Origin: Coriobacteriia bacterium
GTDB taxonomy: Bacteria; Actinomycetota; Coriobacteriia; Coriobacteriales; UBA8131
Assembly: GCA_009783245.1 (NCBI GenBank)
Contig: WRHL01000014.1
Span: 1 to 32,367 of the forward strand
DNA length: 32,367 bases
Direction of reading: 5' to 3'
Part shown: positions 5-32,367 of the stretch, one piece after another
Numbering within the stretch: position 1 is the stretch's first letter
How the letters are laid out: each line of letters starts with the position of its first letter
Translations under genes and position numbers: made by a program
Notes under the pieces: model-generated
What the model was told of the DNA's origin: nothing
The model's input: only the letters and a program-made list of their open reading frames with translations
Database searches by the model: none

Positions 5-109
5 GACAGAAGGGGCCGTTTCAGGACAGAAGGGGACGTTTCTATTTTGTCCTTTTCAAGGACAAAATAGAACCGTCCCCTTCTGTCCTGAACCGTCCCC
101 TTTGTCATG
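5..109. repeat. Nested inverted-repeat element (family A, 'GGACAGAAGGGGACG...CGTCCCCTTCTGTCC' / 'CCGTCCCCTTTGTCAT'), upstream of the flotillin gene
   Basis: Direct reading: arm 24-52 'ggacagaaggggacgtttctattttgtcc' is the reverse complement of 60-88 'ggacaaaatagaaccgtccccttctgtcc'. An outer arm 5-24 pairs with 89-109. The 'ccgtcccctttgtcat' motif is shared with the copies at 18189, 30109 and 30775. Confidence 0.7.
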
Positions 110-331
110 CCGCTGGACGCGCATGGGAAGCGTGCGCTGGGCGGGGTGAAGCCGCGCGGTTTTTGGGCTCGCGTTGGGGTGAGACTCATCCTGCTCGTAA
201 CCTTTTCCTGTCTGCTTGATGCATGTCCTTGCATTACGTACGTGCAGACGATACTCTACAAGTAGGCTTGGTGTTATGAGTTCCTGTGCAAGCCGTATTC
301 CGCTTATCACCATGCAAAGAGGGAGAGGACC

Positions 332-2670: not shown

Positions 2671-4209
2671 ATGGATGATGGCGTAAGGGAGAAAGGCGGC
2701 GGCTCCGGCGACGGCGGGGAGAGCGGGGTCGGCGGTATCACTGCCATCTCCATCCGCACCTATGTCACTGCCTTTGTGGTGCTTGTCGCCTTGATGGTTG
2801 CGGCCTTCATCGTGACGCGGGTTTTGCCTGCAGGCGAATTCAGCAGGACGCTTGTTGATGGGGTCGAGGTTATAGTACCCGGCTCCTTCCAGGGCACAAC
2901 CGGTGACCTGCCATTCTGGAAGTGGCTGCTCTCGCCCCTGCTTATCCTTGGCGGGCCGAACAATGTCATGCTGATCTTCCTTTTGGTCTTCCTGTTTGTC
3001 ATAGGCGGGGCCTTCTACGCCCTGGAGTCCTGTGGTGTGCTCAGCTTCTTGATCACCAGCATCGCAAAGAGGTTCGAGCGCAACAACCGCCTGCTGCTCT
3101 TCATCCTACCCCTGGTCTTCATGTTGCTGGGGACGCTGATCGGCTCCTTTGAAGAGGTCATCCCCCTGGCTGCCATTGTTGTCGCCTTGGCCCTACGCCT
3201 GGGATGGGACCGCTTCCAGGGGCTGGGTATGAGCATTCTGGCCGTGGGCTGCGGTTTTGCGGTAGGCGTCATGAACCCCTTCACCACCGGCATCGCCCAG
3301 ACCATCGCCGGCCTGCCCATCTTCTCTGGAGCCTGGCTCCGCATTGTGTGCTTTGTGCTGGTCTATGCCCTGCTGATGGGCTTCCTGCTGCTAAATGCCC
3401 GTCGCTGCGAACGGGCTGGCAAAGCGAGCGGCTTTGGTATCAAAGCCAGCACGAGAAGTGCGGCAACAGAACCTGCCGCCAATCCCTCACAAACCGACGC
3501 CCCCGCAACCACCTTCCCAGCAGCTGATAACCCCGCAACCAACCCCCGTATGCCCAAGGCGCTGAAGGCCTTTGTCATTGTCTTTGTCATAGGCATTGCC
3601 GCGATAATCGCCTGCAGTGTGATTCCCCTGTCAGGGCTTGCTGACCTGGTCTTCCCCGTCTGCGCCCTCACCTTCCTGCTCTGTGGGATAATCGCCCCTC
3701 TGCTCTGCGGCTGCGGCGGAAAACAGCTTGTACTCTGGTTCCTCAACGGCATGAAGACCATCGCACCAGGCGCATTGCTGGTGCTGATGGCCTCCTCCAT
3801 CAGCTATATGCTGACCGAAGGCAGGGTGCTTGACACCATCATCTATTACACCTATAACTTCCTGGGCGACAAGCCAGGTTGGTTGACCATCCTTGGCATC
3901 TACCTGCTGGTCATGCTGCTGGAATTCGCCATTCCGTCGGGATCCGCCAAGGCGTTCCTGTTGATACCCCTGCTCGCCCCGCTTGTCGACCTCATCGACA
4001 TCCCGCGCCAGCTGTTAGTCCTCTCATACATCTTTGGGGATGGTTTCACCAACGTGTTATACCCCACCAATCCTGCCCTGCTCATCGCGCTCTCGCTGGG
4101 CGGCCTGAGCTACGGGCAGTGGATCAAGCGATCCTGGCCCTTCTTTGTGGGGCTGCTTATCCTGACGGCGATTATTCTGTTGGTGGCGCTGGCAATCGGC
4201 TACCAATGA
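2671..4209 (+). CDS. Polytopic membrane transporter, YfcC / DcuC-like (putative anaerobic C4-dicarboxylate or basic amino acid carrier) family
   Basis: 512 aa with more than 10 hydrophobic helices. Motifs 'LLEFAIPSGSAKAFLLIPLLAPL' and 'SYIFGDGFTNVLYPTNP' resemble the YfcC family. The exact start is uncertain (Gly-rich N-terminus). Confidence 0.45.
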   Translation: MDDGVREKGGGSGDGGESGVGGITAISIRTYVTAFVVLVALMVAAFIVTRVLPAGEFSRTLVDGVEVIVPGSFQGTTGDLPFWKWLLSPLLILGGPNNVMLIFLLVFLFVIGGAFYALESCGVLSFLITSIAKRFERNNRLLLFILPLVFMLLGTLIGSFEEVIPLAAIVVALALRLGWDRFQGLGMSILAVGCGFAVGVMNPFTTGIAQTIAGLPIFSGAWLRIVCFVLVYALLMGFLLLNARRCERAGKASGFGIKASTRSAATEPAANPSQTDAPATTFPAADNPATNPRMPKALKAFVIVFVIGIAAIIACSVIPLSGLADLVFPVCALTFLLCGIIAPLLCGCGGKQLVLWFLNGMKTIAPGALLVLMASSISYMLTEGRVLDTIIYYTYNFLGDKPGWLTILGIYLLVMLLEFAIPSGSAKAFLLIPLLAPLVDLIDIPRQLLVLSYIFGDGFTNVLYPTNPALLIALSLGGLSYGQWIKRSWPFFVGLLILTAIILLVALAIGYQ

Positions 4210-4221
4210 TCAACTGGCGGG

Positions 4222-9763: not shown

Positions 9764-10481
9764 GGATATTTGCATGGATTTTGGTGACGCCACCGTATTG
9801 AGCCAGGTGAGCTTCTCTGACCATATAGACAAGCTTGCCATCATCGGGCCTTCTGGTGGTGGGAAGACAACGCTTCTGCGTATCATCGGCGGCCTTTTGA
9901 CGCCAAGCGCTGGCCGCCTGTATCTCGATGGGGAGGAAGTCGATTTCTTGGAGAACAGCCTCCCCGGATACCGGGCGCAGCTTGGCTATGTCTTCCAGCA
10001 GGGGGGGCTTTTCCATCATCTCAGCGCCCTGAAGAACATCGCCCTTCCCCTGCAGGTGGTGCATGGCGTAAGCGAGGAGGAGTCCCTGGAGCGTGCGCGG
10101 CAACTGCTGGAGCGCTTTGGGTTGGGCCAGGAAGGCGACAAGATGCCTGCCCAGCTGTCTGGAGGCCAACAGCAACGTGCCGCAATCGCACGGGCCATCG
10201 CAGCCTCGCCAAAACTGGTCCTGCTCGACGAGCCTACCAGCGCACTTGACCCTGAGTACACCAACGAGGTACTTGATGTCATCAATGACCTGGGGAAGAC
10301 CGGCATCCGCTTCATCATCGTCACCCACGAGATGGGTTTCGCCCGGCATGCCTGCGATAAGATAGCCTTCCTTTGCGGGGGGATGCTCCTGGAGTATGGC
10401 CCGAGCTCAGAGTTGTTTGAGGCCCCATCGACGCCTGAGCTGCAGAGGTTCCTGGGGAAGCTTTTGGAGTGGCGGGTGTGA
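9747..10481 (+). CDS. Amino acid ABC transporter ATP-binding protein
   Basis: Walker A 'GPSGGGKTT', signature 'LSGGQQQRAAIARA', Walker B 'LVLLDEPTSALD'. Start placed at 'MHVRLEDICMDFG' (ATG 9747). Its 5' end overlaps the permease 3' end. The TGA stop lies inside the first unit of a 12-bp tandem repeat. Confidence 0.8.
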   Translation: MHVRLEDICMDFGDATVLSQVSFSDHIDKLAIIGPSGGGKTTLLRIIGGLLTPSAGRLYLDGEEVDFLENSLPGYRAQLGYVFQQGGLFHHLSALKNIALPLQVVHGVSEEESLERARQLLERFGLGQEGDKMPAQLSGGQQQRAAIARAIAASPKLVLLDEPTSALDPEYTNEVLDVINDLGKTGIRFIIVTHEMGFARHACDKIAFLCGGMLLEYGPSSELFEAPSTPELQRFLGKLLEWRV

Positions 10482-10535
10482 TGGTGGGTGTGATGGTGGG
10501 TGTGATGATGGGTGTGATGATGGGTGTGATGGAGG
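10476..10535. repeat. Tandem repeat, 12-bp unit 'GTGTGATGGTGG' about 5 copies, overlapping the ABC ATPase stop codon
   Basis: Direct reading: gtgtgatggtgg / gtgtgatggtgg / gtgtgatgatgg / gtgtgatgatgg / gtgtgatgg. Confidence 0.85.
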
Positions 10536-11533: not shown

Positions 11534-11706
11534 CTGGATAGCTGTTCGCCTGCGGTAGTTGCCGCATCCACGCGCTTGGACCTTCTGGCTGACAAAGCCT
11601 GTTCAAACTGACAGAAAGTCCCATTTAAAGTCACTAATTAGCGCCCCTGATAAGGCTTTTATAAGATAGAATACAGCCAGGATTGTCAAGTGGTATGGAG
11701 GGTACT

Positions 11707-13401: not shown

Positions 13402-13410
13402 CAAGTTGAT

Positions 13411-13465
13411 TTGAGGTTAGTCGTCAAAATGACGACCAACCTCAATGGTCGGGACGACAGGATTT
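13411..13465 (-). repeat. Duplicate of the tRNA-Pro 3' end (22 nt) plus its downstream hairpin, with compensatory stem changes
   Basis: 13444-13465 'aatggtcgggacgacaggattt' is identical to 13711-13732. The hairpin 13411-13445 'ttgaggttagtcgtcaaaatgacgaccaacctcaa' parallels 13676-13712 'tttgaggttagcccccataatgggggctaacctcaaa'. Confidence 0.75.
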
Positions 13466-13603
13466 CCGATCGCTCACTTCGTTCGCGCTCTCCCACCTTC
13501 GCTCACGTTGTTCGCTCGGTCTCGCGCCTACAGGCCTGCCACAGGCAGCCCTGTTTAACGGCGCCTTGCCCTGGGGTTCGCGCAAGCGCTCCCCATTCTC
13601 ACT

Positions 13604-13628
13604 GAAAACGTGCCACTGGCACGTTTTC
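13604..13628. terminator. Perfect hairpin 'GAAAACGTGCC ACTG GCACGTTTTC', candidate bidirectional terminator / structural element
   Basis: 9-10-bp perfect stem read directly. No clean T-tract beyond the stem itself. Confidence 0.3.
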
Positions 13629-13650
13629 CTGGCGTTCGAATCCCTTCCCA

Positions 13651-13668
13651 GGTTCAAATCCTGTCGTC
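13651..13668 (+). repeat. Inverted partial copy of the tRNA-Pro T-arm / 3' acceptor ('GGTTCAAATCCTGTCGTC')
   Basis: Matches the T-arm/acceptor 3' half of the adjacent tRNA, but on the opposite strand. Confidence 0.55.
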
Positions 13669-13712
13669 TAAAGCATTTGAGGTTAGCCCCCATAATGGGG
13701 GCTAACCTCAAA

Positions 13713-18257: not shown

Positions 18258-18311
18258 AAAAAAGCGTAGAATCTCCCTTACGCAAATATGGGTGGGATAA
18301 GGAGTACTGCG

Positions 18312-19130: not shown

Positions 19131-19498
19131 GGAAGCACGCTTCCTGATGGTGTTGCGCTGCGAGATTGACAGTGTTACGTTGTGGGAAAGGCAGCGCCCT
19201 ACCGCGAGCCTGGCAAGATTCCGTTAGGAGACATGAGCTTGGTGGTGCCTTCTTAGGAGATCCATAACCTCCTGCCATCGGTAATGCCTCTGCGTATGCC
19301 TGCTCAGTGGTGCCCGCTAGCCGGGCGACCAGTTCCGCATCCCCTTTTCCCTGACAGAAGCAAAGCGCGCGACTCAGCTGCATTGAGGGGTGAACACTGG
19401 TTAAAGGACAGGCAGGTCACATATAATCAGTATTTATCGTTTGGATTGGAATTTCACGATTATCCAAAACGGCGCAATGCATTGAGGGAGCAAGGTTT

Positions 19499-20689: not shown

Positions 20690-20730
20690 CTGCAGGCAGG
20701 CTGGCAGCCGCTTACACGCTTACATGAACC

Positions 20731-21078
20731 CTAATACAGGGCCTCACCGGTCAGCTTCTCTAGCCAGAGTTCCTTAAGCGCCTTGATGTCGGCGGCAAAC
20801 TCCGCGTCTGTCTGGGTCTCGCCCTTTTCCAGTTCCTCCAAGATCTCAAAGGCAAAACCGACGCCGCCCTGCTCCTCCCAGTCTTTCTGCATCTTCAGAT
20901 AGACGCATGTCCCTGTCTCCTGCGCAAAGGCAAACCTGTTCATGCTGCCAGAGAGGTTGGTTGAGGCATCCAACAGCGCCTTGGCGGCAACCGTGTTCCT
21001 GATAAGGAAAACGCCGCCAAGCTTCTTCCTGTCCCGGTATTGCTGCGCCATTTCCCTGCGCGACTCGCTGCCTGCCAT
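20731..21078 (-). CDS. Hypothetical protein (115 aa), last gene of the amidohydrolase-mnmA operon
   Basis: RBS 'gggggag' 19 bp after the mnmA stop. No recognisable motif. Confidence 0.4.
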   Translation of the reverse strand: MAGSESRREMAQQYRDRKKLGGVFLIRNTVAAKALLDASTNLSGSMNRFAFAQETGTCVYLKMQKDWEEQGGVGFAFEILEELEKGETQTDAEFAADIKALKELWLEKLTGEALY

Positions 21079-21096
21079 ACGCTTACTCCCCCATTG

Positions 21097-22164
21097 TCAG
21101 TGTGCGCCTGTAATGGTGCCGCCGCCCAGTACCAGGTCGCCGTCATACAGGATCAGGGCCTGGCCCTTGGTGATGGCTTTCTGGGGCTCGTCGAAGACCA
21201 CTTCCAGGCGGTCCTCCTCCAGCTGAGTCACGGTGACCGGCTGTTCAGGCGAGCGGTAGCGGTGCTTGGCGGTTGCCCTGATGGCCCCTTCAAAGGATCC
21301 GCTGACGATAAGGTTGATGTCCTCCACGGTTGCGACCTTCCCATACAGGTCGGCTTCTGTGCCCACCACAACGGTTGCCGTCTGGGGGTCGATCTCCTTC
21401 ACATACAGCGGCTGGGCGGCGGCTATGCCTATCCCTTTGCGCTGGCCGATGGTGAAGCCGATGATGCCCTGGTGGGTTCCCAGCCGCCGCCCCTGGGTGT
21501 CGACTATGTCCCCGGGCGGGTACTCGCGGCCAGTGGTTCGGCGGATGAAAGCCCCGTAGTCATGGTTGGGAATGAAGCAGATGTCCTGGCTCTCACCCTT
21601 GTCAGCGGTGGGAAGGCCCTGGGCGCTGGCAAGCTCGCGCACCTGCTCCTTGGTGAGCCCACCCAGCGGGAAGAGCGTGTGTGCCAGCTGCTCCTGCGTG
21701 AGTGTGTAGAGCACGTAGCTCTGGTCCTTGCTGCGGTCCAGGGCGCGTTTCAGCAGGTGGTGGCCGGTGTCCTTATCGTAATCTATACGTGCGTAGTGGC
21801 CGGTGGCCACGTAGTTGAAGCCGGTTTCCTGTGCATGGGCCAACAGGCAGGCGAACTTGAGATGGCGGTTGCAGGCGATGCAAGGGTTGGGGGTCCAGCC
21901 CCGCTCGTAGGCCGCGATGAAAGGGGCTATGACCTGCTGCGTGAAAGTGGCGGTGAGGTCCAGCACCTCATGGGGGATCTGCAAATGGTCGCAGATGGCG
22001 CGGGCATCGGTGATGGCAGATGCGGAGGCGTTATCATCGCCATCATACAGGCGCATGGTGGCGCCGGTGCAGGTATGTCCCGCCTGCACGGTGAGGTATG
22101 CGGCCACCGATGAGTCGACGCCGCCGGAAAGCGCGATGAGAACGCTACTACTCATCAAGCTCAC
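21097..22164 (-). CDS. mnmA: tRNA-specific 2-thiouridylase
   Basis: 355 aa. PP-loop 'IALSGGVDSSVAAYL'. C-terminal 'GGGTI' typical of MnmA. 4-bp overlap with the upstream gene. Confidence 0.8.
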   Translation of the reverse strand: MSLMSSSVLIALSGGVDSSVAAYLTVQAGHTCTGATMRLYDGDDNASASAITDARAICDHLQIPHEVLDLTATFTQQVIAPFIAAYERGWTPNPCIACNRHLKFACLLAHAQETGFNYVATGHYARIDYDKDTGHHLLKRALDRSKDQSYVLYTLTQEQLAHTLFPLGGLTKEQVRELASAQGLPTADKGESQDICFIPNHDYGAFIRRTTGREYPPGDIVDTQGRRLGTHQGIIGFTIGQRKGIGIAAAQPLYVKEIDPQTATVVVGTEADLYGKVATVEDINLIVSGSFEGAIRATAKHRYRSPEQPVTVTQLEEDRLEVVFDEPQKAITKGQALILYDGDLVLGGGTITGAH

Positions 22165-23471
22165 AGGCTCGCGGCGATCTGGGCGCTGAAGCGCTTGGTG
22201 TCATGGCAGGCCCGCTGGATGTCGATGCTCAGCCAGGCGCCGTCGCGGTAGAGCACGGCCCCGTCCACCATGGTGAGCGCCACGTCGGTGCCCTGGGCGG
22301 AGTACACCAGGTTGTTGACCAGGCTGTGGATGGGCTGCATCCAGGGTGCGCAGATGTCCAGCGCCACCAGGTCGGCGCGTTTGCCCACCTCTATGGCGCC
22401 GCAGTCCAGGCGGCCCTGCGAGCGCGCGCCGTTGACGGTTGCCACGGCCAGCGCCTGCCCAGGGCTCACCACGGTGGGGTCACCACTGGCGCCCTTGCTG
22501 AGCAGGGCAAACAGGTACAGGTCCTTCAATATGTTGTGCGAGTTGTTGCTCGCAACCCCGTCAGTGCCTATGCACACGTTCACGCCAGCCCCCAGCATGT
22601 CACCCACCGGAGCAAAACCGCTGGCCAGCTTCATGTTGCTCGCCGGGTTGCTGGAGACGCTCACGCCGCGAGCCGCGAAGATCTCCCAGTCCGCCGGCTC
22701 TGTCCACACGCAGTGCGCCGCTGTGCAGGGCACGCCAAAGAAGCCCAGCGAGTCGAAGTACTGCGTGGGCGTCAACCCGCCACGACGCTGCTTGCACTCC
22801 TCGTGCTCCTTGTGGGTCTCGCTGATGTGCACGTGGGTCTGTACGCCCAGCTCAGCGGCGTGCTCGCCCACCGCGCGAACCACCTGTGGGTTGGAGATGT
22901 ACTCGGAATGTATGTTCAGGTCGATCTTCAGCCGGCCATCCAGGCTGTTGTGGTGCGCCCTCACCAGCTCCTCGTTGCGCTTGCGGTTGGGGGTCTGGTC
23001 ATAGGTGGTCTCATTGTCAAAGACCATGATGCCGTCGCACAGGTTGGCCTTGATGCCGCTTTCCGTCACCGCCCGGATGCGCGCGTCGCTGAAGAAATAC
23101 ATGTCGGTCACGCCCACCACGCCAAAGCGCAGCATCTCGGCAATGGCCAAAAGGGTTGCCGGGTAGGCCTTCTCGTCATCTATCTTGGCCTCAAAGGGGA
23201 ATATCTTGTTGAACAGCCAGTCCTGCAGCGCGAGGCCCTCGGCATAACCGCGCAGTAAGGTCATGGGTATGTGCGCGTGGGTGTTGTACATGCCGGGCAT
23301 GAGCAGCCTGCCTCGCCCCTCATAGCGCTCGCCAAAATCCTCTGACGAGAAGCCCGGATCCTGCACGGGATCCACCTCGCCCACATAGGTGATGTGTGCC
23401 CCTTGGGTACCCACAAAACCGCGCTTGACCTCAAAGTCGCTGGTCAGATAGTCGATGTTCGCAAAAAGCAT
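22161..23471 (-). CDS. Amidohydrolase, 5-methylthioadenosine/S-adenosylhomocysteine deaminase (MtaD/TRZ-ATZ) family
   Basis: 436 aa. 'LLMPGMYNTHAHIPMTLLRGYAEGLALQDWL' is the metal-binding HxH region. 'HVHISET' and 'CIGTDGVASNN' are typical of this subfamily. Confidence 0.65.
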   Translation of the reverse strand: MLFANIDYLTSDFEVKRGFVGTQGAHITYVGEVDPVQDPGFSSEDFGERYEGRGRLLMPGMYNTHAHIPMTLLRGYAEGLALQDWLFNKIFPFEAKIDDEKAYPATLLAIAEMLRFGVVGVTDMYFFSDARIRAVTESGIKANLCDGIMVFDNETTYDQTPNRKRNEELVRAHHNSLDGRLKIDLNIHSEYISNPQVVRAVGEHAAELGVQTHVHISETHKEHEECKQRRGGLTPTQYFDSLGFFGVPCTAAHCVWTEPADWEIFAARGVSVSSNPASNMKLASGFAPVGDMLGAGVNVCIGTDGVASNNSHNILKDLYLFALLSKGASGDPTVVSPGQALAVATVNGARSQGRLDCGAIEVGKRADLVALDICAPWMQPIHSLVNNLVYSAQGTDVALTMVDGAVLYRDGAWLSIDIQRACHDTKRFSAQIAASL

Positions 23472-23489
23472 GGCTGCTCCCTGTTAATA

Positions 23490-23518
23490 CCCGGCTCCTG
23501 CTTTGTGCCGGCTTTTTT
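23490..23518 (+). terminator. Candidate rho-independent terminator oriented on the + strand, between two minus-strand genes
   Basis: 'ccggc tcctgctttgt gccgg c tttttt': 5-bp GC stem, 11-nt loop, T6 tract. Confidence 0.25.
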
Positions 23519-23528
23519 ACGCTGTGCC

Positions 23529-24359
23529 CTAGTACGCCTTGAAGGCGCTCTTCGCGGTGAGGCAGACAGGGCAGGCTGTGAACGCCTCTCCTTTGTGGAT
23601 GTAGCCGCAGACAGGACAGAGGTAGTACTTGTCGTCATCTGGGGTATCAATGGTGTTGTAAGCGTTGAGGTAGCGCTCGGCATGATAGGCCTCAGCCAGT
23701 TTTGCTCGCGTGAAGATCTGTACCGCCTCGCTCTCGCCCTCATCCTGGGCCTTCTTGATGAAGGAGGGATACATATCCGAGGTCTCATACATCTCACCGC
23801 TTGCCCCCATGATCAGGTTGATGTCGGTTTCATGCGCAGTGGCCGCGGGGGCTGTTGGACGCGTAGTGCTGGAGTCCATCTTGGAGGCCAGGGCGAACTC
23901 GAGCTCGATGTGGATCTTCTCGGCATCAGAGGTGCAGGTGAACAGCCGGGCGAGCTGAGGAAAACCCTCCTTCTTTGCCGCTTCTGCAAAGGCAGCGTAT
24001 TTTGCCGATGCCCCCGTCTCGCCTGCAATAGCCGAGCAGAGGTTGTCATACGTGCTGCCAACAGCGGTTGTGCTGCCGGACATGATGTTGAAATTGCTTG
24101 CGCTATCAGCAGAGGGGACCGACGTTGGTGAGAGGACCCCACTCGTTGACCCCTCCGTAGAGCCACCGCTCGCACCAGCGTTACCAGATTTGGTATCACC
24201 TGCGCAAGCAGCCAAGATCCCCGCCATAGAGACTGTGGTGGCTCCCACAGCTGCCTTCTTCACAAAGTCCCGCCTGGTGACCTGTGCCAAAGGATGCTCC
24301 TTGGTGTTGTGTGAGCTCCCAGTTACGCCTGGGCTCTGCATTTCTCCTGATTCAAACAT
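23529..24359 (-). CDS. Rubrerythrin with a Tat signal peptide, a lipobox and a C-terminal rubredoxin-like domain
   Basis: Start placed at 'MFESGEM' with RBS 'gggaagggaaag'. Twin-arginine motif 'TRRDFVKKAAVGA', lipobox 'ILAAC'. S/G/T-rich linker. Rubrerythrin di-iron region 'ASAKYAAFAEAAKKEGFPQLARLF...EKIHIELEF'. C-terminal 'CPVCGY...CPVC'. Confidence 0.65.
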   Translation of the reverse strand: MFESGEMQSPGVTGSSHNTKEHPLAQVTRRDFVKKAAVGATTVSMAGILAACAGDTKSGNAGASGGSTEGSTSGVLSPTSVPSADSASNFNIMSGSTTAVGSTYDNLCSAIAGETGASAKYAAFAEAAKKEGFPQLARLFTCTSDAEKIHIELEFALASKMDSSTTRPTAPAATAHETDINLIMGASGEMYETSDMYPSFIKKAQDEGESEAVQIFTRAKLAEAYHAERYLNAYNTIDTPDDDKYYLCPVCGYIHKGEAFTACPVCLTAKSAFKAY

Positions 24360-24447
24360 AGTGCTTTCCCTTCCCCATCGGTATTTTACGTGCCTTTCCA
24401 AACAGCACGAGTATAGCGGATTGGCAGGGGAGTAGCATCTTCCTCAG

Positions 24448-24522
24448 GATAGAGGACGGTTCACAGGACAGAATGGGGACGGCAGAATGGGGACGGCATT
24501 ATCCTGCGAACCGTCCTCTGTC
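24448..24522. repeat. Family-A-related element with tandem 'CAGAATGGGGACGG' x2 flanked by inverted arms 'AGGACGGTTC/GAACCGTCCT'
   Basis: 'ggatagaggacggttcacaggacagaatggggacggcagaatggggacggcattatcctgcgaaccgtcctctgtccc', located between the rbr start and the tyrS stop. Confidence 0.65.
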
Positions 24523-24527
24523 CCAGC

Positions 24528-25742
24528 TTACAACTTGATGCGGGCGAATTTACGCTTGCCCACCTGGATGACTGCGCCGGCAAGGCAGGTAACAGCCACG
24601 TTATACTCGCCGACGGCAAGAGGCTCGCCGGCAATCTTGACGCCGCCACCGTCGATGAGGCGGCGGGCCTCCCCGCTGCTGGTAGCAAAGCCCAGCTCAG
24701 CCAGGACGCCAGGCACGTAGACCAACCCCTCCTCGTTGGGAGCCAGCGCCACAGAGACCTCCTCGATCTCATCGGGCAGCTCCTTGTCCCTGTGCAGGCG
24801 GTTGAAGGCGGCCTCGGCCTCAAGGGCGGCCTGCTCGCCATGATAGGCGGTCACTATGTTGGCCGCCAGCTGGCGTTTGACCTCATTGGGGTGCAGGCTT
24901 CCGTCCTCCAGGCCGGCGGCGATCCGGTCGACCTGTTCCACCGGCAGCGTGGATGCCAGGTAGAAGTACCGTGGCATCAGCTCATCGGGGATGGACATGA
25001 CCTTGCCGAACATGTCGTCCGGTTCATCCGTGATGCCAATGTAGTTGCCGTAACTCTTCGACATCTTCTGTACGCCGTCCGTTCCCTCCAACAGCGGCAG
25101 GGTCAGGCAGACCTGCGGCTCCATGCCCATCTTCTCCATGAGCTCGCGCCCTGCAAGCAGGTTGAAGAGTTGGTCGGTGCCGCCCAGCTCGATGTCTGCC
25201 TGCACCATGACCGAGTCATAGGCCTGCATCACAGGGTAGAGTATCTCATGCAGCGAGATGGGCTGCTGCGCCTTGTAGCGGTTGGAGAAGTCGTCGCGCT
25301 CAAGCGTGCGCGCCACGGTGAAATGCGAAGTCAGCTTGAGTATCTGCGCCAGATCAAGCGGCGTCAGCCAGTCACCGTTCCAAACCAGCTCGGTCTTGTC
25401 CTTATCGAGGATCCTATAAGCCTGGTCAACATAGGTCTGGGCGTTGGTGGCGATCTCTTCTGCCGTCAACGGCGGCCGTGTGGAATTGCGCCCCGAGGGG
25501 TCGCCCACAAGGGCGGTGCCGTTGCCGATTATCAAAACCACCTGGTGCCCCAGATCCTGCATCTGGCGCAGCTTGCGCAGGGGCACCGCGTGACCCAGGT
25601 GCAAATCAGGGGCGGTGGGGTCAACACCCAGCTTCACCCGCAGGGGCGCCCCGCGGTCGAGCTTTTGCACCAGCGCGGCTTCAGGAACAAGGGACGCGCC
25701 ACCGCTACGGATGATATGCAGTTGATCTTGGGTTGGAAGCAC
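24528..25742 (-). CDS. tyrS: Tyrosine--tRNA ligase
   Basis: HIGH motif 'DLHLGH', 'KMSKS' present, C-terminal S4-like domain. Start assigned to GTG 25742 preceded by RBS 'aggcgaggagaaacc' (the first residue of the tracked ORF 'VLPTQDQLHII...'). A 'tataat' -10 box lies upstream on the minus strand. Confidence 0.8.
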   Translation of the reverse strand: MLPTQDQLHIIRSGGASLVPEAALVQKLDRGAPLRVKLGVDPTAPDLHLGHAVPLRKLRQMQDLGHQVVLIIGNGTALVGDPSGRNSTRPPLTAEEIATNAQTYVDQAYRILDKDKTELVWNGDWLTPLDLAQILKLTSHFTVARTLERDDFSNRYKAQQPISLHEILYPVMQAYDSVMVQADIELGGTDQLFNLLAGRELMEKMGMEPQVCLTLPLLEGTDGVQKMSKSYGNYIGITDEPDDMFGKVMSIPDELMPRYFYLASTLPVEQVDRIAAGLEDGSLHPNEVKRQLAANIVTAYHGEQAALEAEAAFNRLHRDKELPDEIEEVSVALAPNEEGLVYVPGVLAELGFATSSGEARRLIDGGGVKIAGEPLAVGEYNVAVTCLAGAVIQVGKRKFARIKL

Positions 25743-25852
25743 GGTTTCTCCTCGCCTTTGCTGTGGTGACTTGAGGTGACGATAAAAGCAAGTAGCCATT
25801 ATACTATGACTGGGGAAGTACCCGAGCATTACTCCTCTGAAGGGAGATTCAC

Positions 25853-26848
25853 ATGAACGTGTTGGTTGTTGGCGGAGCGGGCTACATTGGCAGCCATACC
25901 ACCTACGAGCTGATCCGCGCCGGGCATGAGGTGGTGGTCCTTGACAACCTCTCAACCGGCAGCCACAAGAGCATCCACCCCCAGGCGCACTTTGAGTGGG
26001 GCGACATCCGCCGCAAGGGCGACATCACGCGCGTGCTGAAGGCTCAGGCCCAGGCCGGCAAGCCCATCGACGTAGCCATGCATTTTGCCGCCAAGCTCAT
26101 CGTGCCGGAAAGCGTCACCCAACCCCTGGCATATTATGAGAACAACGTGGAGGGCCTGCGCTGCATGTTGGAGGCGCTGATAGAATGCGGCGTGCAGAAC
26201 ATCGTCTTCTCCTCCACAGCAGCGGTCTACGGTGAACCCAAGGCCCCAGAGTGCCGCGAGGGCGACCCCACTGAGCCCATCAACCCCTACGGTGAGACCA
26301 AACTCGCCTGCGAGAAGATGATCAAATGGGCTGCGGCCGCACACGGCCTCAACTACTGCATACTGCGGTACTTCAACGTGGCTGGCGCCGATGCCAGCCT
26401 ACAGATAGGCCTGGACAAGGACCAGCTCACCCACCTGGTGCCCCTCATCATGCAGGCCGCGCTGGGATTGCGTGACAAGCTCTCCATCTTTGGCGCTGAC
26501 TACCCCACCCCGGATGGCACCTGCATCCGCGACTACATCCATGTCACCGACCTGGCCCAAGCCCACGTGTTGGGCGCCGCCTATATCCTCAACAACAACA
26601 CCAATGTGCTGGCGAATCTGGGCTCGGGCACCGGTTTCAGTGTCAAGCAGGTGGTGGACGCGGCCCTGGAGCTCTTCGACGTGCCCTTTGAGTACGCGCC
26701 GCGCCGCCCGGGCGACCCGGCCAAGCTCATCGCGAACATCGACCATGCAAAAACCGTGCTGGGCTGGGAGCCACAGCACGGTCTACAAAGCATTCTGAAA
26801 AGCGATTACGACTTCCGCCAGAAACTCAACAAAAGCAGCGAGGTCTAA
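25853..26848 (+). CDS. galE: UDP-glucose 4-epimerase
   Basis: 331 aa. 'VLVVGGAGYIGSH', 'YxxxK' in 'YGETKLACE'. Typical GalE length and C-terminal region. RBS 'aagggag'. Confidence 0.8.
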   Translation: MNVLVVGGAGYIGSHTTYELIRAGHEVVVLDNLSTGSHKSIHPQAHFEWGDIRRKGDITRVLKAQAQAGKPIDVAMHFAAKLIVPESVTQPLAYYENNVEGLRCMLEALIECGVQNIVFSSTAAVYGEPKAPECREGDPTEPINPYGETKLACEKMIKWAAAAHGLNYCILRYFNVAGADASLQIGLDKDQLTHLVPLIMQAALGLRDKLSIFGADYPTPDGTCIRDYIHVTDLAQAHVLGAAYILNNNTNVLANLGSGTGFSVKQVVDAALELFDVPFEYAPRRPGDPAKLIANIDHAKTVLGWEPQHGLQSILKSDYDFRQKLNKSSEV

Positions 26849-26917
26849 GACCCAAGCTTTGATCCAAGCTAAGGCCCAAGCTCAGGTCAAAGCCTGTGAG
26901 CAGCGCCACAGCAAGGC

Positions 26918-29119
26918 CTACCCGTTACCTGTACCAGGATCTGGGTCGGGATCCGGGTCTGGATCAGGGTCTGAATCAGGATCCGGGTCTGGATCAGGGT
27001 CAGGGGTAGGAGGCTTAGGCTTGTTCTTCTCCTCTTCCTCTTTCTTCTTAGCTTCTTCCTCGGCTTTCTTCTTAGCCTCTTCCTCTTTCTTCTTCTTGTC
27101 TGCCTCTTCCTTCTTCAGCTTGTCTTCCTCTTCCTTCTTCTTCTTTGCTTCCTCTTCTTCCTGCTTCTTCTTCTCTTCAGCAGTCAGGAAGGTTGCCTGG
27201 GGATCATAGTTAGGGCTGCTCGCCCACGTGAAGCTCTCAGCTTCGTTGTACCAAAGCGCCTCTATCATGAAATCCCGCCACACCGGGCAACAATTCATGC
27301 CACTGTTGTCTTGGATGGGTCTGGGATACTCACGGGCGCCTATCCAGACCGCGCAGGAAAGCTGTGGCGTATAGCCTACAAACCAGGAGTCCCAATAGTT
27401 CTCAGCAGTACCGGTCTTGCCGGCTGCAACCTGCCAACCAAGGTTGGCGCTGGCGCCGGTACCACCGGTCACCACGCCGGTAAGCACCTGATTGGCGGCA
27501 TAGGCAACCTCAGGTGAGACGGCCTGAACCCCGTCATCGTGGTTCTCGTGGTCATAGAGGACCTCGCCTTTATACGTGACGATCTTGGTGATGGCAGTCG
27601 GCTCATGGTGCACCCCGCCTGCAGCTAAGGTCCCAAACGCAGAGGCCATCTCCAGCGTGTTCACTCCCTCAGCGCCCAGCACAGCAGACATATAGGGCTG
27701 GATCTCAGTGGTGATGCCCATGCGATAAGCGGCGTCTATCATGGAATGCACGCCTATCTTACGGATGATTCGCGCATAGGCGGTGTTGGAAGACTGCCAG
27801 GTCGCGCTCTCCAGGGTCATCATCCCGTAGCTGCCGTTCCCATAGTTCTGCACCGGCCAGGGCGGTCCTCCATCGCCGGGGTCAATGGTGATCGGGCCCT
27901 GCCCAGAGACCTGTGTCTTTGGGGAGTACCCCTGCTCCAGAGCCGCTACCAGCGCGAAGACTTTAAAGGTCGACCCCGCCTGGCGTTGCATCTGCCAACA
28001 GGTGTTGAACTGGTCCTCATAGAAGTCCTTGCCGCCGCGCATGACCAGGATATGACCGGTATTAGGGTCTACACAACAGAGGGATACCTCAACATCATCC
28101 TCTCCGTACACATACCATAGCTGCGCCTCTTTCTCTGCACAGGCTATCTCGGCGTAGTACTGCATGTCCCGGTCGATGGTGGTGTAGACGTCCAGTCCAC
28201 CCTTGAAGATGGTGTCCGAGGAATACTCGGTCAGGAGAATGTGGCGCACATAGGAGGTGAAGTAAGGCTCCGCATAGATGCCATCGAACTTCCTGCTCTT
28301 GACATTGAGGTTCAGCTCCTCAGCCCTGTACTGTTCGCGTTCAGCATCGGTGATGTAGCCGTTGACATACATACGGTCGAGCACCATATTGCGCCGTGCC
28401 AGTGCGTTGTCGGGGTATTCGACAGGGTTGTTATAGGTGGGGTTCTGGGGGATTCCCGCAAGCAGGGCAGCCTCGGGGATCGACAGCTGCGAGGCATCTT
28501 TGGAGAAGTAATGCTGGGATGCAGATTGGATGCCCCAGGCGCCATCACCGTAGTTGATGGTGTTAAGGTACATCATCAGGATCTCCGTCTTGCCGTACTT
28601 CTCCTCAACCGCCATTGCCAGCGAAGCCTCGCGCACCTTCCGTTCCAGGGTGCTGTCGTTTGCTTCATCCATGAGGATGGTCGAGCGGACCAGCTGCTGC
28701 GTGATGGTGGAAGCGCCCTGAAGCTGACCGCCTGTCAGGTCATTGATGGCGGCGCGGGCGATGCCGTAGTAGTCAACGCCGTTATGCTCCCAGAAGCGCT
28801 CATCCTCAATGGCGATGGTGGCGTTGAACACATTGGGCGACACCTGGTCGGCAGCCACCGGCTCACGATCCAAGAGCATGATCTCGCCCAACAGTGTGCC
28901 ATCAGGCGCCCAGATCCGCGTCTTGCGCTCCAGGCTGTAGTCCTCGATATCATCGAAACCCGGCAGATCGACAAGCCAGGACTGCACCACCGCATAGGCG
29001 CCGACTGTTGAGAAGGTCAACAGCCCTACGAATACTACGACTACGAGAACAAATGCAAACGGTATAATGAGCTTTCCACGTTTTGGTTGTTGTGCTGCTC
29101 GTTTCCTGCGCGACGACAT
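26918..29119 (-). CDS. Class A penicillin-binding protein (transglycosylase + transpeptidase) with a low-complexity KE-rich and (DP)n C-terminal tail
   Basis: 733 aa. N-terminal TM 'LIIPFAFVLVVVVFVGLLTF'. GT51 motifs 'EDERFWEHNGVD' and 'GASTITQQL'. TP motifs 'STFK', 'SSN', 'KTGT'. Tail '...KKEEEEKNKPKPPTPDPDPDPDPDSDPDPDPDPDPD'. Confidence 0.8.
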   Translation of the reverse strand: MSSRRKRAAQQPKRGKLIIPFAFVLVVVVFVGLLTFSTVGAYAVVQSWLVDLPGFDDIEDYSLERKTRIWAPDGTLLGEIMLLDREPVAADQVSPNVFNATIAIEDERFWEHNGVDYYGIARAAINDLTGGQLQGASTITQQLVRSTILMDEANDSTLERKVREASLAMAVEEKYGKTEILMMYLNTINYGDGAWGIQSASQHYFSKDASQLSIPEAALLAGIPQNPTYNNPVEYPDNALARRNMVLDRMYVNGYITDAEREQYRAEELNLNVKSRKFDGIYAEPYFTSYVRHILLTEYSSDTIFKGGLDVYTTIDRDMQYYAEIACAEKEAQLWYVYGEDDVEVSLCCVDPNTGHILVMRGGKDFYEDQFNTCWQMQRQAGSTFKVFALVAALEQGYSPKTQVSGQGPITIDPGDGGPPWPVQNYGNGSYGMMTLESATWQSSNTAYARIIRKIGVHSMIDAAYRMGITTEIQPYMSAVLGAEGVNTLEMASAFGTLAAGGVHHEPTAITKIVTYKGEVLYDHENHDDGVQAVSPEVAYAANQVLTGVVTGGTGASANLGWQVAAGKTGTAENYWDSWFVGYTPQLSCAVWIGAREYPRPIQDNSGMNCCPVWRDFMIEALWYNEAESFTWASSPNYDPQATFLTAEEKKKQEEEEAKKKKEEEDKLKKEEADKKKKEEEAKKKAEEEAKKKEEEEKNKPKPPTPDPDPDPDPDSDPDPDPDPDPDPGTGNG

Positions 29120-29211
29120 AGTAACCTCCCGTCCGGTTAGGAGTTACCATCATGCCACAAATCAGGCCTTTTTGCTTGTGAGGCTGGCGCATCTGCCGTG
29201 ATTGTAAGCCA

Positions 29212-32058
29212 ATGATTACCTTAGAACCTGATACTATGACGATAAATACAACTCCCGAAAAACCCGTCACAAGGCCGGAACTGCTGGCGCCCGCCGGTAG
29301 TCATGACGCCCTGCTCGCCGCCCTGAGCGCGGGCGCCGATGCCGTCTACCTGGGAGTTGAGGACTTCAACGCCCGCCGCAATGCCACAAACTTCCAGCTG
29401 GATAGGCTTACTGAGGTCTGCGACCTGGTCCACCTCGCCGGCAGGCGGCTCTACCTCACCTTGAACACGCTGGTGTTGCCGGACGAGACCGCTGAGGCGC
29501 TGGAAGTCGCACGTCAGGCTTGGTACGCTGGTGTCGACGCTGTGATTGTCTCCGATCTGGGGCTGCTCGACCGCTTGGCTACAGAGTTGCCACAGCTTGA
29601 GTTGCACGCCTCTACCCAGATGAACCTCCACAGCGGGCCCGCCGTGCGCCAGGCTGCCCGCTTGGGCGCCTCGCGTGTCACACTGTCGCGCGAGCTTTCC
29701 TTGGAGCAGATAGCGCAGATCGCCCAGGAAGGCGTGCCGCTTGAGGTCTTCGCCCATGGCGCGCTCTGCGTCTGCTATTCTGGCCAGTGCCTGTTCTCCT
29801 CGTTGGTGGGCCGCCGCTCCGCCAACCGCGGCCTGTGCGCCCAGGCATGCCGTCTGCCCTACCGCCTCATCGACACCTCCACCGGCAAGCGCCTCAAGGC
29901 GCCCGGCGAGCACCTGCTCAGCCCCGCTGACCTCGCCACCATCGACATCCTGCCCCAGCTTGTCGCCAGCGGTATCACGTCCCTCAAGATCGAGGGCCGC
30001 ATGAAGTCAGCTGCCTATGTCGCCACTGTGACCCGCGTTTATCGTGAAGCTTTAGATGGGCCCGCTAGTGTGGAAGGGATGCCTCAGCTGACTCGCGTCC
30101 CGAAAGCCGATCATGACAAAGGGGACGGTCCGTTTTGTCATGATTGCGAGGGCCTGCAAGCCGCTCAAATCCCTCGTCATTGCGAGGAGCGAAGCAACGC
30201 GAGCGACGTGGCAATCTACGGCAGCGGTCAGGGATCAGTGGCGCTGACACAGCGAAATGACAAAGAGGGCGGAGCGCATGAGATTCTCTCGGAGACTTTC
30301 TCGCGGGGTTTCACCACCGCGTATCTTGAGGGCGACCGCACAAACAGCATGATGAGCTATGCGCGGCCCAACAACCAGGGAGTTGCAGTGGGTCGCATTG
30401 CCGCGCTGGACAAGGGGCTGGTGGCCCTTGCACTGACCAAGCGGGTCACCCAAGGCGACCTGCTTGAGATCCGCACCTCGCGAGGACGTGCCACCGTTAC
30501 GCTTGAAAACTTTTGGGCCTCTTCTGACACCAAGAAGCCTCCGCTTACTGAGGCAGCAGAAGAAACCCGTATCTGGCTGCGGATCCCCGACCCCGTAAGC
30601 CCGGGCGACCGGGTATTCCGCATCCGCAACGCCGAGCTGCAGGATGAGGCCGAGTCCCACTACAACAACACCCTCTTCCAAGGCAACAACGGCCTGGTAG
30701 ACCTTCACGCCCAGGTCACCGCCCATCTCAACCATCCCCTGACCATCACCTTCACCACAGACTGGGACGGGGCACATGACAAAGGATATGACAAAGGGGA
30801 CGGTCCCTTTTGTCATATGCTTGTCACCCCGGGCTTGACCCGCGGCCTACCGTCGCCATCGCAGGACGATAATGGCTGTCGTCCAAACGGGCTGCCTTCC
30901 CGCCAGGCCTCGCCCATCCAAGGCACTGCAAGCGGCGACCCACTCCAGCCAGCCCGCACCAAAGCCCTCACCCCAGAGGACATCCGCGAGCACGTTGGAC
31001 GCGTAGGCGGCACCCCCTTCAGCATCGCATCCTGGGACATCCAACTTGACGAGGGCGTGGGCCTTGGCTTCTCGCAGCTGCACAGCCTGCGCACCCAGGC
31101 GCTCGAGGACCTCACGGAGAACCTGCTGCAACCCTGGCGGCAACGCCGCCTCACCAAGCGCGATGACCCTCCAGCCTTAGCGCCCGCGCAGAAAGGCAAG
31201 CCACGTGTTGCCGCCATAGTGCGCGACGCGGCCAGCGCAAAGGCCGCGGTACTCGGCGGCGCGGAGCTCATCTACCTGCACTACCTCACGTTTGAGGCGG
31301 AAAGCCAGCCAGACGCCAACGGCAGCGGCGGCAACGCCAGTAGCCCCGGCGCCAGCCCCAAAAGGCTGCCGACAAAGGTGCCCATCGTAGCGCTGCTGCC
31401 CGCCATCACCCATGACAGCGAGCTACCGCCCCTGCTGGCAAGCCTCAAGAACCGCAAAGCGGCCGTCGCCAACAACCTGGCGCAGGTCGAACTGCTCGCC
31501 GACACGCTCGACAGCCTGGAAGCCGGCCCCTCGCTGGGCATTGGCAACCAGGACGCCCTCGCCCTGGCCGTCAAATGCAAACTGTCGCAGGCCTGGCTGA
31601 GCCCCGAGCTCAGCTACCAGGACATAGCGCACATCTCCCCCACCGCACCGCTGCCGCTGGCGCTGACCATTGTGGGCCGCCAGGAGCTCATGGTCACCGA
31701 GCACTGCCTGCTCATGGCCCAGGGCCCCTGCGACCAACGCTGCGCCACCTGCGCCCGCCGCAAGGCCCCGCGCCTGCTGGAAGACCGCAAAGGCTACCTC
31801 TTCCCCCTGCGCACCGACCAGGCCGGCCGCAGCCACCTCTTCAATTCCGTGCCGCTTGACCTGGTGCCCTCCATGCCGGAGATCGTCAGCCTGGGCATCT
31901 CCACCCTGGTGGTCGACGGTACGCTCATGACGACAAAAGAGTTGCGCGCGGAGGTTGAACGCGCCACGCGTGCCCGCGACCTGGCCGTCAGGGGCGCCGG
32001 CAGCCTCCCCAAGCGCGAGGGCCAGACCACCGGCCACTTCTTCCGCGGCGTGTGGTAG
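29212..32058 (+). CDS. Peptidase U32 family protein (long form with DUF3656-like and second U32-like region). Carries in-frame insertions of the dispersed repeats.
   Basis: 'RPELLAPAGSHDALLAALSAGADAVYLG', 'TQMNLHS', 'EVFAHGALCVCYSGQCLFSS' and 'KIEGRMKS' are U32 signatures. The start may instead be ATG 29236. Repeat elements at 30109-30275 and 30775-30818 are translated in frame ('HDKGDGPFCH'). Confidence 0.7.
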   Translation: MITLEPDTMTINTTPEKPVTRPELLAPAGSHDALLAALSAGADAVYLGVEDFNARRNATNFQLDRLTEVCDLVHLAGRRLYLTLNTLVLPDETAEALEVARQAWYAGVDAVIVSDLGLLDRLATELPQLELHASTQMNLHSGPAVRQAARLGASRVTLSRELSLEQIAQIAQEGVPLEVFAHGALCVCYSGQCLFSSLVGRRSANRGLCAQACRLPYRLIDTSTGKRLKAPGEHLLSPADLATIDILPQLVASGITSLKIEGRMKSAAYVATVTRVYREALDGPASVEGMPQLTRVPKADHDKGDGPFCHDCEGLQAAQIPRHCEERSNASDVAIYGSGQGSVALTQRNDKEGGAHEILSETFSRGFTTAYLEGDRTNSMMSYARPNNQGVAVGRIAALDKGLVALALTKRVTQGDLLEIRTSRGRATVTLENFWASSDTKKPPLTEAAEETRIWLRIPDPVSPGDRVFRIRNAELQDEAESHYNNTLFQGNNGLVDLHAQVTAHLNHPLTITFTTDWDGAHDKGYDKGDGPFCHMLVTPGLTRGLPSPSQDDNGCRPNGLPSRQASPIQGTASGDPLQPARTKALTPEDIREHVGRVGGTPFSIASWDIQLDEGVGLGFSQLHSLRTQALEDLTENLLQPWRQRRLTKRDDPPALAPAQKGKPRVAAIVRDAASAKAAVLGGAELIYLHYLTFEAESQPDANGSGGNASSPGASPKRLPTKVPIVALLPAITHDSELPPLLASLKNRKAAVANNLAQVELLADTLDSLEAGPSLGIGNQDALALAVKCKLSQAWLSPELSYQDIAHISPTAPLPLALTIVGRQELMVTEHCLLMAQGPCDQRCATCARRKAPRLLEDRKGYLFPLRTDQAGRSHLFNSVPLDLVPSMPEIVSLGISTLVVDGTLMTTKELRAEVERATRARDLAVRGAGSLPKREGQTTGHFFRGVW
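30109..30275. repeat. Composite family-A + family-B + partial-A repeat block, embedded in frame in the U32 CDS
   Basis: 30109-30145 is the palindrome 'gatcatgacaaaggggacggtccgttttgtcatgatt'. 30172-30222 is 'cctcgtcattgcgaggagcgaagcaacgcgagcgacgtggcaatctacgg'. 30255-30273 is 'gaaatgacaaagagggcgg'. Confidence 0.8.
30775..30818. repeat. Family-A palindromic element within the U32 CDS
   Basis: 'catgacaaaggatatgacaaaggggacggtcccttttgtcatatg'. Confidence 0.85.
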
Positions 32059-32367
32059 CACAGAAGGGGACGGTTCTATTCTGTCCCCGGTGCAGTTGAC
32101 GCACTCCCCTGCGCTTGCGCTAGAGCCTCCGTCATTGCGAGCGCAGCGCCCGATGGGCGCGCAGCGTGGCAATCTACGCAGCAGACTCTCATTGTTGGCA
32201 GTTTGTCACAGCGCATCACCTTGCAGGTTCGTAGAGAAAGAGAATCAAACGGGAGGCAATGCGCTGTGTTAGCGTCCCTCATCCCCAGCCGCTGGCGTAG
32301 ATTGCCACGTCGCCTTCGGCTCCTCGCAATGACGAGGAGGCAATGCGCCGCGTTTGCGTCCCTCATC
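32057..32367. repeat. Composite repeat array at the window end: A-like (32060-32088), B (32121-32170), C (32251-32284), B reverse-complement (32293-32337), C (32334-32367)
   Basis: B copies share 'cctcgtcattgcgagg...gcgacgtggcaatctacg' with the intragenic copy at 30172-30222. C copies share 'gaggcaatgcgc.g.gtt.gcgtccctcatc'. The two C copies are about 83 bp apart. The array is truncated by the window edge. Confidence 0.75.

Follow-up and report, generated by a model that had tools for sequence, protein, structure and literature searches.

A probable REP/BIME-like family of short hairpin repeats in a Coriobacteriia genome, with copies between genes, at a donated stop codon and in frame within a U32 peptidase

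The window considered here, a 32,367-nucleotide (nt) contig of a Coriobacteriia bacterium (WRHL01000014.1, assembly GCA_009783245.1), carries a family of short palindromic repeats at six loci, and comparison with related contigs indicates that this family has been multiplied and dispersed in the genome of its Coriobacteriia lineage. [quoted passage not shown] As such, they are a known kind of element that is unusual in having no tag, in its modular half-site, in its foldbacks and in the repeated in-frame use of the same protein loops. An earlier note on this DNA had proposed a repeat present at six or more loci and unusually dense, and we find the motif at all six that it listed: the 8-mer GGGGACGG occurs 9 times on the two strands of the window against 1.58 expected (the maximum in 100 shuffles being 5), the looser half-site AAGGGGACGG occurs 10 times against 2.4 expected when up to one mismatch is allowed, and the 29-mer ATGACAAAGGGGACGGTCCCTTTTGTCAT occupies four positions where none is expected. 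The same note took the repeat to be one palindrome with two types of arm; inspection of the six loci instead separates two related subfamilies, designated here type A, which is a true palindrome, and type B, whose unit folds poorly when alone.

Type A is an imperfect palindrome of 27-29 nt, (A)TGACAAAGGGGACGGTCCCTTTTGTCA(T), with 13-nt arms about a 1-nt centre, ends of the form (A)TGACA...TGTCA(T), and CGTC or GACG at the apex of the hairpin. Its one fixed imperfection places a left-arm G opposite a right-arm T, which amounts to a G-T wobble on one strand and an A-C mismatch on the other. The type B unit, GGACAGAAGGGGACGGTTCTATT(T/C)TGTCC, begins GGACAGAAGGGGACGGTTC... and has GACA(G)AAGGGGACGGT in common with type A; the lone unit at 32057-32088 is a weak hairpin (z = -1.9, folded as DNA), and strong type B structure is found only in inverted and tandem arrays, which form long foldbacks. 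Folded as single-stranded DNA, the stretch at 1-109 reaches -47.6 kcal/mol (z = -13.9), that at 18186-18262, which covers the locus at 18190-18257, reaches -33.2 kcal/mol (z = -11.4), and that at 24445-24525 reaches -20.5 kcal/mol (z = -5.2), with type A folds ranging from z = -6.7 to z = -11.4. We think it likely that one half-site, (T/G)GACA(G)AAGGGGACGG, serves as the basic module of the whole family, giving the 27-nt type A palindrome when two copies are inverted and the type B foldback when copies are both tandem and inverted. Incomplete modules occur as well: the type A copies at 18190 and 30776 have a 12-nt partial head, ATGACAAAGG(G/A)T, on their 5' side, partial TGACAAAGGG heads frequently precede type A copies (34 tabulated), and runs of such heads, 8-11 nt apart, occur outside the palindromes. 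On either strand, type A leaves two frames open (MTKGTVPFV; DKGDGPFCH or DKRDRPLCH) and begins the third with TGA, a design which accounts both for the tolerated in-frame copies and for the donated stop codon described below.

The donated stop codon lies at the junction of a gene for a cyclic 2,3-diphosphoglycerate synthase (cDPGS)-like protein with one for a PhzF-like protein. L022, a relative, has this site empty: its two genes share an ATGA overlap, and its cDPGS-like protein ends ...GDFLSEMRLVEGAWQ*. In the window the site is filled by a partial head and a dimer standing between ...DEFL and the PhzF gene, so that the cDPGS-like protein (100% identical to MCL1846861.1) ends ...DEFLV* at a TGA supplied by the head of the element (18191-18193, from the element's ATGA) and is without the last 10 residues of the L022 protein; the PhzF gene of the window has an AAGGAG ribosome-binding site of its own. 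Comparison of the filled and empty sites shows that the element can supply a stop codon and uncouple two overlapping genes. The L022 empty site has TA where the window dimer is flanked TA...TA, at a junction too diverged to prove a duplication. This is also the locus that the earlier note called tandemised, and while repeated units are indeed present at 18202-18257, they form an inverted dimer, with a minus copy (18202-18230) followed by a plus copy (18229-18257), a 2-nt overlap and zero spacer, all preceded by the partial head. As a separate matter, the cDPGS gene itself (window 16874-18193, named cyclic 2,3-diphosphoglycerate synthase by NCBI) has homologues of 75-87% identity in very different phyla, found in metagenome-assembled genomes (MAGs) of Oscillospiraceae, Treponema, Desulfovibrio, Synergistaceae and a Nitrososphaerota archaeon, and conservation this unusually high suggests recent horizontal spread of the gene within one kind of community.

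It had been noted that copies fall inside genes as well as between them, and this is the case: two of the six window loci are in frame within the 948-residue open reading frame (ORF) of a U32 family peptidase. Most relatives of this protein, whose homologues come from Coriobacteriales or Coriobacteriia, have ~820-870 residues, and the window protein has two repeat-bearing in-frame insertions. Both of its type A copies are read in one open frame, DKGDGPFCH, to give the peptides ...HDKGDGPFCHD... and ...DKGYDKGDGPFCH... respectively. In the alignment both copies stand in stretches that vary in length in every homologue, the second copy corresponding to a gap in relatives, and the Pfam match to DUF3656 is stretched, with 170 residues covering 109 profile positions. 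In an AlphaFold2 model, residues 286-352 and 519-565 have pLDDT values below 50 and no secondary structure, and their flanks are mostly well above 80. The copies are thus located in loops which are variable in length and, as modelled, disordered. Each insert is a mosaic, the first consisting of type A followed by a CGTCATTGCGAG...GGCAATCTACG repeat, and the second of a head, a type A palindrome and a 65-nt repeat that is also found in L007. The same loops are occupied elsewhere, since L019, a relative of 69% GC, has a 130-nt type-B-like foldback (-73 kcal/mol) in frame in the same DUF3656 loop, the U32 loops of L018 hold half of a type A palindrome with a TGTC-tagged REP-like hairpin, and L020 has a less clear REP-like stretch. 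A peptide search for further in-frame copies returned four small ORFs only; two cluster members reported beside its matches (P0245 and P0247) do not contain the motif and were set aside.

Comparison within the species rests on the U32 contig L003, from another sample. It is 99.86% identical to the window over 5152 nt and diverges inside the 32057 element, where three direct GGGGACGG units replace the single type B unit of the window. In this comparison of two samples of one species, of the kind that the earlier note had suggested, the 32057 copy is structurally polymorphic, and the intragenic copies of the U32 gene are identical in L003, which is an independent assembly.

The remaining window loci illustrate how the modules are combined. 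The copy described earlier as 5-109 is present, and it extends over 1-109, where the contig end cuts it: two type B units per arm (GGACAGAAGGGGACG..) surround a TTC loop, the outermost right arm terminates in a type A half, ACCGTCCCCTTTGTCATG (92-109), and the whole lies ~220 nt upstream of a Band_7 gene. The compound hairpin at 24447-24523 has outer arms GGATAGAGGACGGTTCACAGGA / TCCTGCGAACCGTCCTCTGTCC around two direct CAGAATGGGGACGG units, and is placed between the stop of the tyrosyl-tRNA synthetase (TyrRS) gene and the start of the rubrerythrin gene, both on the minus strand. With respect to stop codons, one window copy overlaps that of cDPGS and others lie 1 nt (U32) and 4 nt (TyrRS) away, such copies being found 0-5 nt past the stop.

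That the family is dispersed and not local, as the earlier note had supposed, is borne out by searches beyond the window. A scan of GTDB with the query GACAAARGGGACSGTCCCYTTTGTC, covering one genome per species, matched two contigs only, from an Acidaminococcaceae MAG and a Verrucomicrobiaceae MAG, and it follows that the source species is not among the GTDB representatives. The same scan in JGI metagenomes gave 13 loci, 11 of which are on 10 contigs of metagenome Ga0082212. What these contigs have in common with the window is repeats and not genes; identical 27-mers adjoin unrelated housekeeping genes, including groES-groEL, the argJ-argD interval (in L007 one copy lies 3 nt past the argJ stop) and a DNA polymerase III delta-subunit-family gene. 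In total we tabulated 34 type A copies (4 from the window, 29 from Ga0082212 contigs and 1 from L006), 24 of them exact 27-mers and all with the same G/A stem asymmetry. Over all searches, copies are present on many contigs, which represent no fewer than three JGI metagenomes, two GTDB-representative MAGs and one ENA assembly. Furthermore, a translated dimer is recorded as the hypothetical protein MCL1846987.1 (FWF91_03360; MTKGTVPFVMTKGTVPFV...) on a contig of 28,963 nt, and from the proximity of its accession number to those of the window proteins MCL1846861.1 and MCL1846871.1 this appears to be a second contig of the window's MAG. Many copies lie within ~100 nt of a contig end, as is to be expected of a multi-copy repeat in short-read assemblies. 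No copy is present in the syntenic relatives L004 and L020 (U32 protein ~61-63% identical to that of the window) or L018 and L022 (cDPGS 87% identical), and at the TyrRS/rubrerythrin point L004 and L020 lack the GGGGACGG motif and differ from the window in gene order. IMG/VR viral contigs gave no match for the 25-mer and an 18-mer, blastn of plasmid and phage collections gave none for the dimer, and a single viral match to a type B 17-mer proved to be an unrelated coding tandem repeat. The Rfam gathering scan of the window returned tRNA-Pro only and no known RNA family for the repeats.

In Ga0082212 the palindrome also occurs as a larger composite, a 101-nt unit made of a type A palindrome, a conserved 47-nt spacer and an inverted palindrome, which is present at a minimum of four distinct loci and folds at -40 kcal/mol. 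Two such units are located in the two intergenic gaps between argJ and argD, and the stretch that they bound may encode argB. Other recurrent units of 110-130 nt start with a type A palindrome, and L005 1-101 (Ga0082212) is a type B foldback with at least three tandem units per arm, 91% identical to window 2-86; for the window element at 1-109 the 91% match covers L005 1-88. Separately, L007 231-4880 (Ga0082212_10005652) is a large inverted duplication with arms of ~2.3 kb and a type A dimer (2523-2588) at its exact centre. It represents a genuine palindromic rearrangement or else a fold-back made at the hairpin during assembly.

Contigs from distant taxa have nearly the same core, GGGACAAAGGGGAC-N-GTCCCCTTTGTCCC, which might reflect common descent, horizontal spread or recognition by one kind of protein. 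The core hairpin stands next to CGTC/GTAG-type REPs in Coriobacteriia loci as well as in the Acidaminococcaceae contig. One might go further and propose that the (G)GACAAAGGGGAC-N-GTCCCCTTTGTC(C) hairpin represents an undescribed, untagged REP-like superfamily across distant phyla, read by a conserved candidate mobilising or binding protein and repeatedly remodelling proteins through the same permissive loops in different lineages; this is a speculative proposal to which we assign a rather low likelihood. The coordinates of the features discussed here are collected in Table 1.

Table 1. Repeat copies and associated features in the window and on related contigs. Positions are those of the window unless a contig is named.
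Feature	Location	Strand	Remarks
Compound foldback, left side cut by contig end	1-109	.	inverted repeat, 45-nt arms, 93% complementary
12-nt partial head ATGACAAAGGGT + inverted type A dimer	18190-18257	.	29-nt arms, 100% complementary
29-mer ATGACAAAGGGGACGGTCCCTTTTGTCAT	18202-18230	-	exact
29-mer ATGACAAAGGGGACGGTCCCTTTTGTCAT	18229-18257	+	exact
Compound hairpin	24447-24523	.	22-nt arms, 91% complementary
U32 family peptidase, 948 aa	29212-32058	+	Pfam Peptidase_U32 and DUF3656
Single type A palindrome, 1 mismatch (GTCCG)	30111-30143	+	in frame, reads HDKGDGPFCHD
29-mer ATGACAAAGGGGACGGTCCCTTTTGTCAT	30113-30141	+	1 mismatch
Second repeat family, CGTCATTGCGAG..GC-rich hairpin..GGCAATCTACG	30175-30220	+	in frame in U32
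Partial head ATGACAAAGGAT + type A palindrome	30776-30816	+	in frame, reads HDKGYDKGDGPFCH, inside DUF3656
29-mer ATGACAAAGGGGACGGTCCCTTTTGTCAT	30788-30816	+	exact
Third repeat family (cttgtcaccccgggcttgacccgcggcctaccgtcgcc...)	30819-30883	+	directly 3' of second intragenic type A, in frame in U32
Single type B unit	32057-32088	+	begins 1 nt after U32 TAG stop
Second repeat family, further copy	32130-32178	+	
Second repeat family, further copy	32296-32334	-	
101-nt pair unit	L007 6191; L007 7335; L016 1312; L009 1974; L011		
Near-identical core	Acidaminococcaceae contig, 44% GC		three copies, variable centre; adjoins CGTC-type REPs
Near-identical core	Verrucomicrobiaceae contig, 63% GC		foldback with tandem GGGACAAAA units
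Near-identical core	36% GC contig (L012)		hairpin then T-run

Among the kinds of element that the earlier note had put forward, the REP/BIME-like one fits these repeats best. Type A is a short imperfect palindrome (27-29 nt, within the 20-40 nt class) in multiple copies that lie mostly just 3' of ORFs; its inverted pairs have conserved linkers as BIMEs do (the zero-spacer dimer of the window, the 47-nt spacer in Ga0082212); its copies are sometimes clustered or grouped, with several families in one genome; and it shares with REPs the occasional donation of a stop codon and the occasional in-frame intragenic copy. Each of these traits has been reported for GTAG- and CGTC-tagged REPs, donors of stop codons and REPs inside ORFs among them (Di Nocera et al. 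2013, PMC3733652). Unlike in REPs, the reusable half-site here also builds foldbacks with tandem arms, and unlike in REPs linked to a REP-associated tyrosine transposase (RAYT), no RAYT is seen among the ORFs scanned in the window and related loci, though CGTC REPs are also described without a dedicated transposase (PMC3733652). The in-frame copies further recall the Rickettsia palindromic elements (RPE) and the intragenic REPs of Opitutus terrae and others, which lie in frame in housekeeping proteins, add peptide segments at permissive surface positions and can hit one gene twice (PMC3733652). With RPE the likeness is one of insertion behaviour, and the sequences are probably unrelated. RPE-1 is longer, at ~100-150 bp, and in contrast to RPE the modules described here measure 27-41 nt, stand among two further repeat families and occupy loops whose length already varies throughout the whole gene family.

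Several observations weigh against a REP/BIME-like identity, and should be set beside those just given. In the GTAG- and CGTC-tagged REP superfamilies (Di Nocera et al. 2013, PMC3733652) one end of the stem bears an unpaired tetranucleotide tag, whereas type A has no unpaired GTAG or CGTC end tag and has CGTC at its apex; its stem is of 13 bp with 1 nt between the arms, unlike the 8-9 bp stems and 4-5 nt loops of CGTC REPs. Pfam scans of 30 ORFs, taken from the window and ~60 kb of related loci, yielded not a single transposase. Furthermore, the copy counts cover one contig of the MAG and related contigs; the Ga0082212 contigs were chosen for carrying a copy and are from a putatively related population; and the empty-site reference, L022, is a relative with a cDPGS of 87% identity and not a strain of the same species.

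The explanation that the repeats are true MITEs, that is, deletion derivatives of an insertion sequence (IS) of the DDE type, with TGACA...TGTCA terminal inverted repeats, moved by cut-and-paste and duplicating a TA target as Correia elements do, draws on the 101-nt units, whose 27-nt inverted termini enclose a conserved core of 47 nt at four or more loci, and on the additional 110-130 nt units that start with the type A palindrome. Such termini around a short non-coding core (~50-500 bp) are the architecture of a MITE, and the 101-nt pairs are also comparable to the Correia elements of Neisseria, which have inverted termini of ~26-27 nt and a conserved core, lie within operon gaps and, like these pairs, would fold as RNA into a long hairpin. 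A few copies have TA on both sides (e.g. window 30789 and L007 7409), the TA of the L022 empty site faces the TA...TA of the window dimer, and the periodic subterminal TGAC half-sites resemble arrays of transposase-binding sites. However, the target-site duplications for which the earlier note recommended a search are not consistently present around the 34 type A copies (left flanks vary among CA, TA, TG, GG and GA, and on the 3' side TA or TG is frequent), and the window copies are for the most part single palindromes of 27-41 nt, which lack the MITE architecture and are too short for a two-ended element. The autonomous partner suggested in that note (an IS200/IS605 TnpA or a RAYT) was found neither in the window nor in related loci, where the ORFs scanned include no Y1 transposase; no IS with these termini was found in ~90 kb (the window plus related loci); and all-against-all blastn yielded no repeat above ~130 nt common to the loci, homologous genes apart. 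In addition to lacking a consistent TA duplication, the units differ from Correia elements in having no sequence similarity to them, in that each terminus is itself a palindrome, and in that single termini also occur. The MITE-like alternative of the earlier note thus finds a partial match, in the TIR-like (terminal-inverted-repeat-like) 101-nt pairs of related contigs, and we consider a true MITE origin unlikely. A further parallel is offered by the minimal elements derived from IS200/IS605 (palindrome-associated transposable elements, PATEs), in which, as here, an imperfect hairpin has a conserved stem irregularity of the kind read by Y1 HUH transposases, and classical terminal inverted repeats and target duplication are absent; unlike in PATEs, the hairpins of a pair are inverted to each other and not in the same strand sense, a conserved target or cleavage site of 4-5 nt was not identified, and the sequences scanned yielded neither TnpA nor TnpB.

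It could also be argued that these are functional motifs selected by the host, whether sites bound by a protein or hairpins serving as factor-independent terminators or as stabilisers, and not mobile DNA. The position of copies 0-5 nt past stop codons would suit such motifs, as would the occurrence in distant taxa (contigs of 44%, 63% and 36% GC) of the same 25-nt core, both of whose arms show compensatory changes, and the intrinsic-terminator-like hairpin and T-run of L012. Within 17000-32367, however, no copy is called terminator-like, and the A-run that follows 18257 is, with plus-strand genes on either side, on the wrong strand; no convincing sigma-70 geometry was visible by eye in the TTGACA-like ends with the 47-nt spacer. 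Copies also lie in frame inside a peptidase gene beside two other repeat families, orthologous sites in relatives have no copy, and operators would not readily account for partial heads or foldback arrays. An arbitrary stem mismatch is kept in essentially every copy, which argues for copying from a master sequence and not for independent selection for pairing. On balance we regard host selection as decidedly improbable. Last, a local duplication or an assembly artefact of this one contig might be suspected, given that both contig ends lie in repeats and that the L007 inverted duplication on a type A dimer is possibly an assembly fold-back. Against this, the same intragenic copies are present in the independent assembly L003, copies occur on many contigs from several metagenomes, MAGs and an ENA assembly, and the reading frame of the 948-residue protein is intact across its copies; L003 and the Ga0082212 contigs effectively refute the suspicion, and we give it almost no weight.

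Two other repeat families are clustered with the one described here. The second family bears CGTC on one end and, on the other, CTAC(G), which reads as GTAG on the opposite strand, and by its sequence fits the tagged REP superfamilies of PMC3733652; related copies are present in L005 and L013. L007 has two copies of the third family, inverted to each other, to which the window repeat is 86% identical (1744-1808 and 3303-3367), and window 30788-30851, which includes a type A copy, is 94% identical to L013 107-167. Of the two contig ends, the left lies in the type B foldback and the right in a different repeat family. The genes of the window are ordinary chromosomal ones (Band_7, DcuC, MurB, an ABC transporter, HisG, tRNA-Pro, PhzF-like, MnmA, rubrerythrin, TyrRS, PBP1A and the U32 peptidase). 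Gene order differs from that of L022, L004 and L020 at several points, and two of the breakpoints coincide with element copies, one upstream of the Band_7 gene and one where the rubrerythrin gene is placed between the TyrRS and amidohydrolase genes, a coincidence which hints that the repeats could be markers or agents of rearrangement. The type B arm contains GACAAAATAG, which resembles the TnsB-binding core of Tn7; a likeness over 10 nt is no evidence, and Tn7-like genes were not seen. A literature search for the core sequence returned only unrelated constructs, and a limited literature search found no description of a REP or MITE for Coriobacteriia.

Some further observations in the window concern other features. 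At 13402-13742 a terminator-like hairpin together with the last 20 nt of tRNA-Pro(tgg) is present twice in direct order (13409-13466 and 13675-13733), bracketing ~250 nt with fragments that resemble a tRNA T-arm and a repeat (13572-13643) that is 96% identical to L011 153-224, where it adjoins a truncated and an intact tRNA-Ala; to judge from its layout, this region looks like a scar of integration or duplication at the 3' end of a tRNA. A 572-residue ORF (11683-13401) has a weak, sub-threshold match to the MtrC/MtrF-like outer-membrane multihaem cytochrome domain, which is unexpected in Coriobacteriia. Five tandem 12-nt units, GGGTGTGATGGT, at 10462-10535 overlap the end of the ABC-transporter ATPase ORF, and at 26929-27178 the PBP1A gene (minus strand) has a low-complexity C-terminal tail derived from CT-rich repeats with periods of 12-27 nt.

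As to how a REP/BIME-like family of this kind might propagate, it is reasonable to postulate non-autonomous repeats that are copied in trans, probably in the form of single-stranded hairpins, by an enzyme that would read the asymmetric stem. The foremost candidate for this enzyme is a HUH tyrosine transposase related to RAYT or to those of IS200/IS605. Partial heads and tandem arm units may then arise through slippage or template switching driven by the hairpins. After insertion, extragenic copies would most likely serve as hairpins at the 3' end of the messenger RNA and there influence stability, attenuation or processing.

These repeats appear to extend REP/BIME-like elements to the class Coriobacteriia, with a family that does not have the GTAG/CGTC tags on which most REP classification relies. 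On one contig of 32 kb, a single palindrome has had three coding outcomes, namely the donation of a stop codon that truncates a protein, segments of peptide read in frame, and silence between genes. In practical terms, such repeats break metagenome assemblies, leaving copies at contig ends, and create spurious small ORFs such as MTKGTVPFVMTKGTVPFV..., and the near-identical core in distant phyla provides a lead toward the machinery that spreads such elements.

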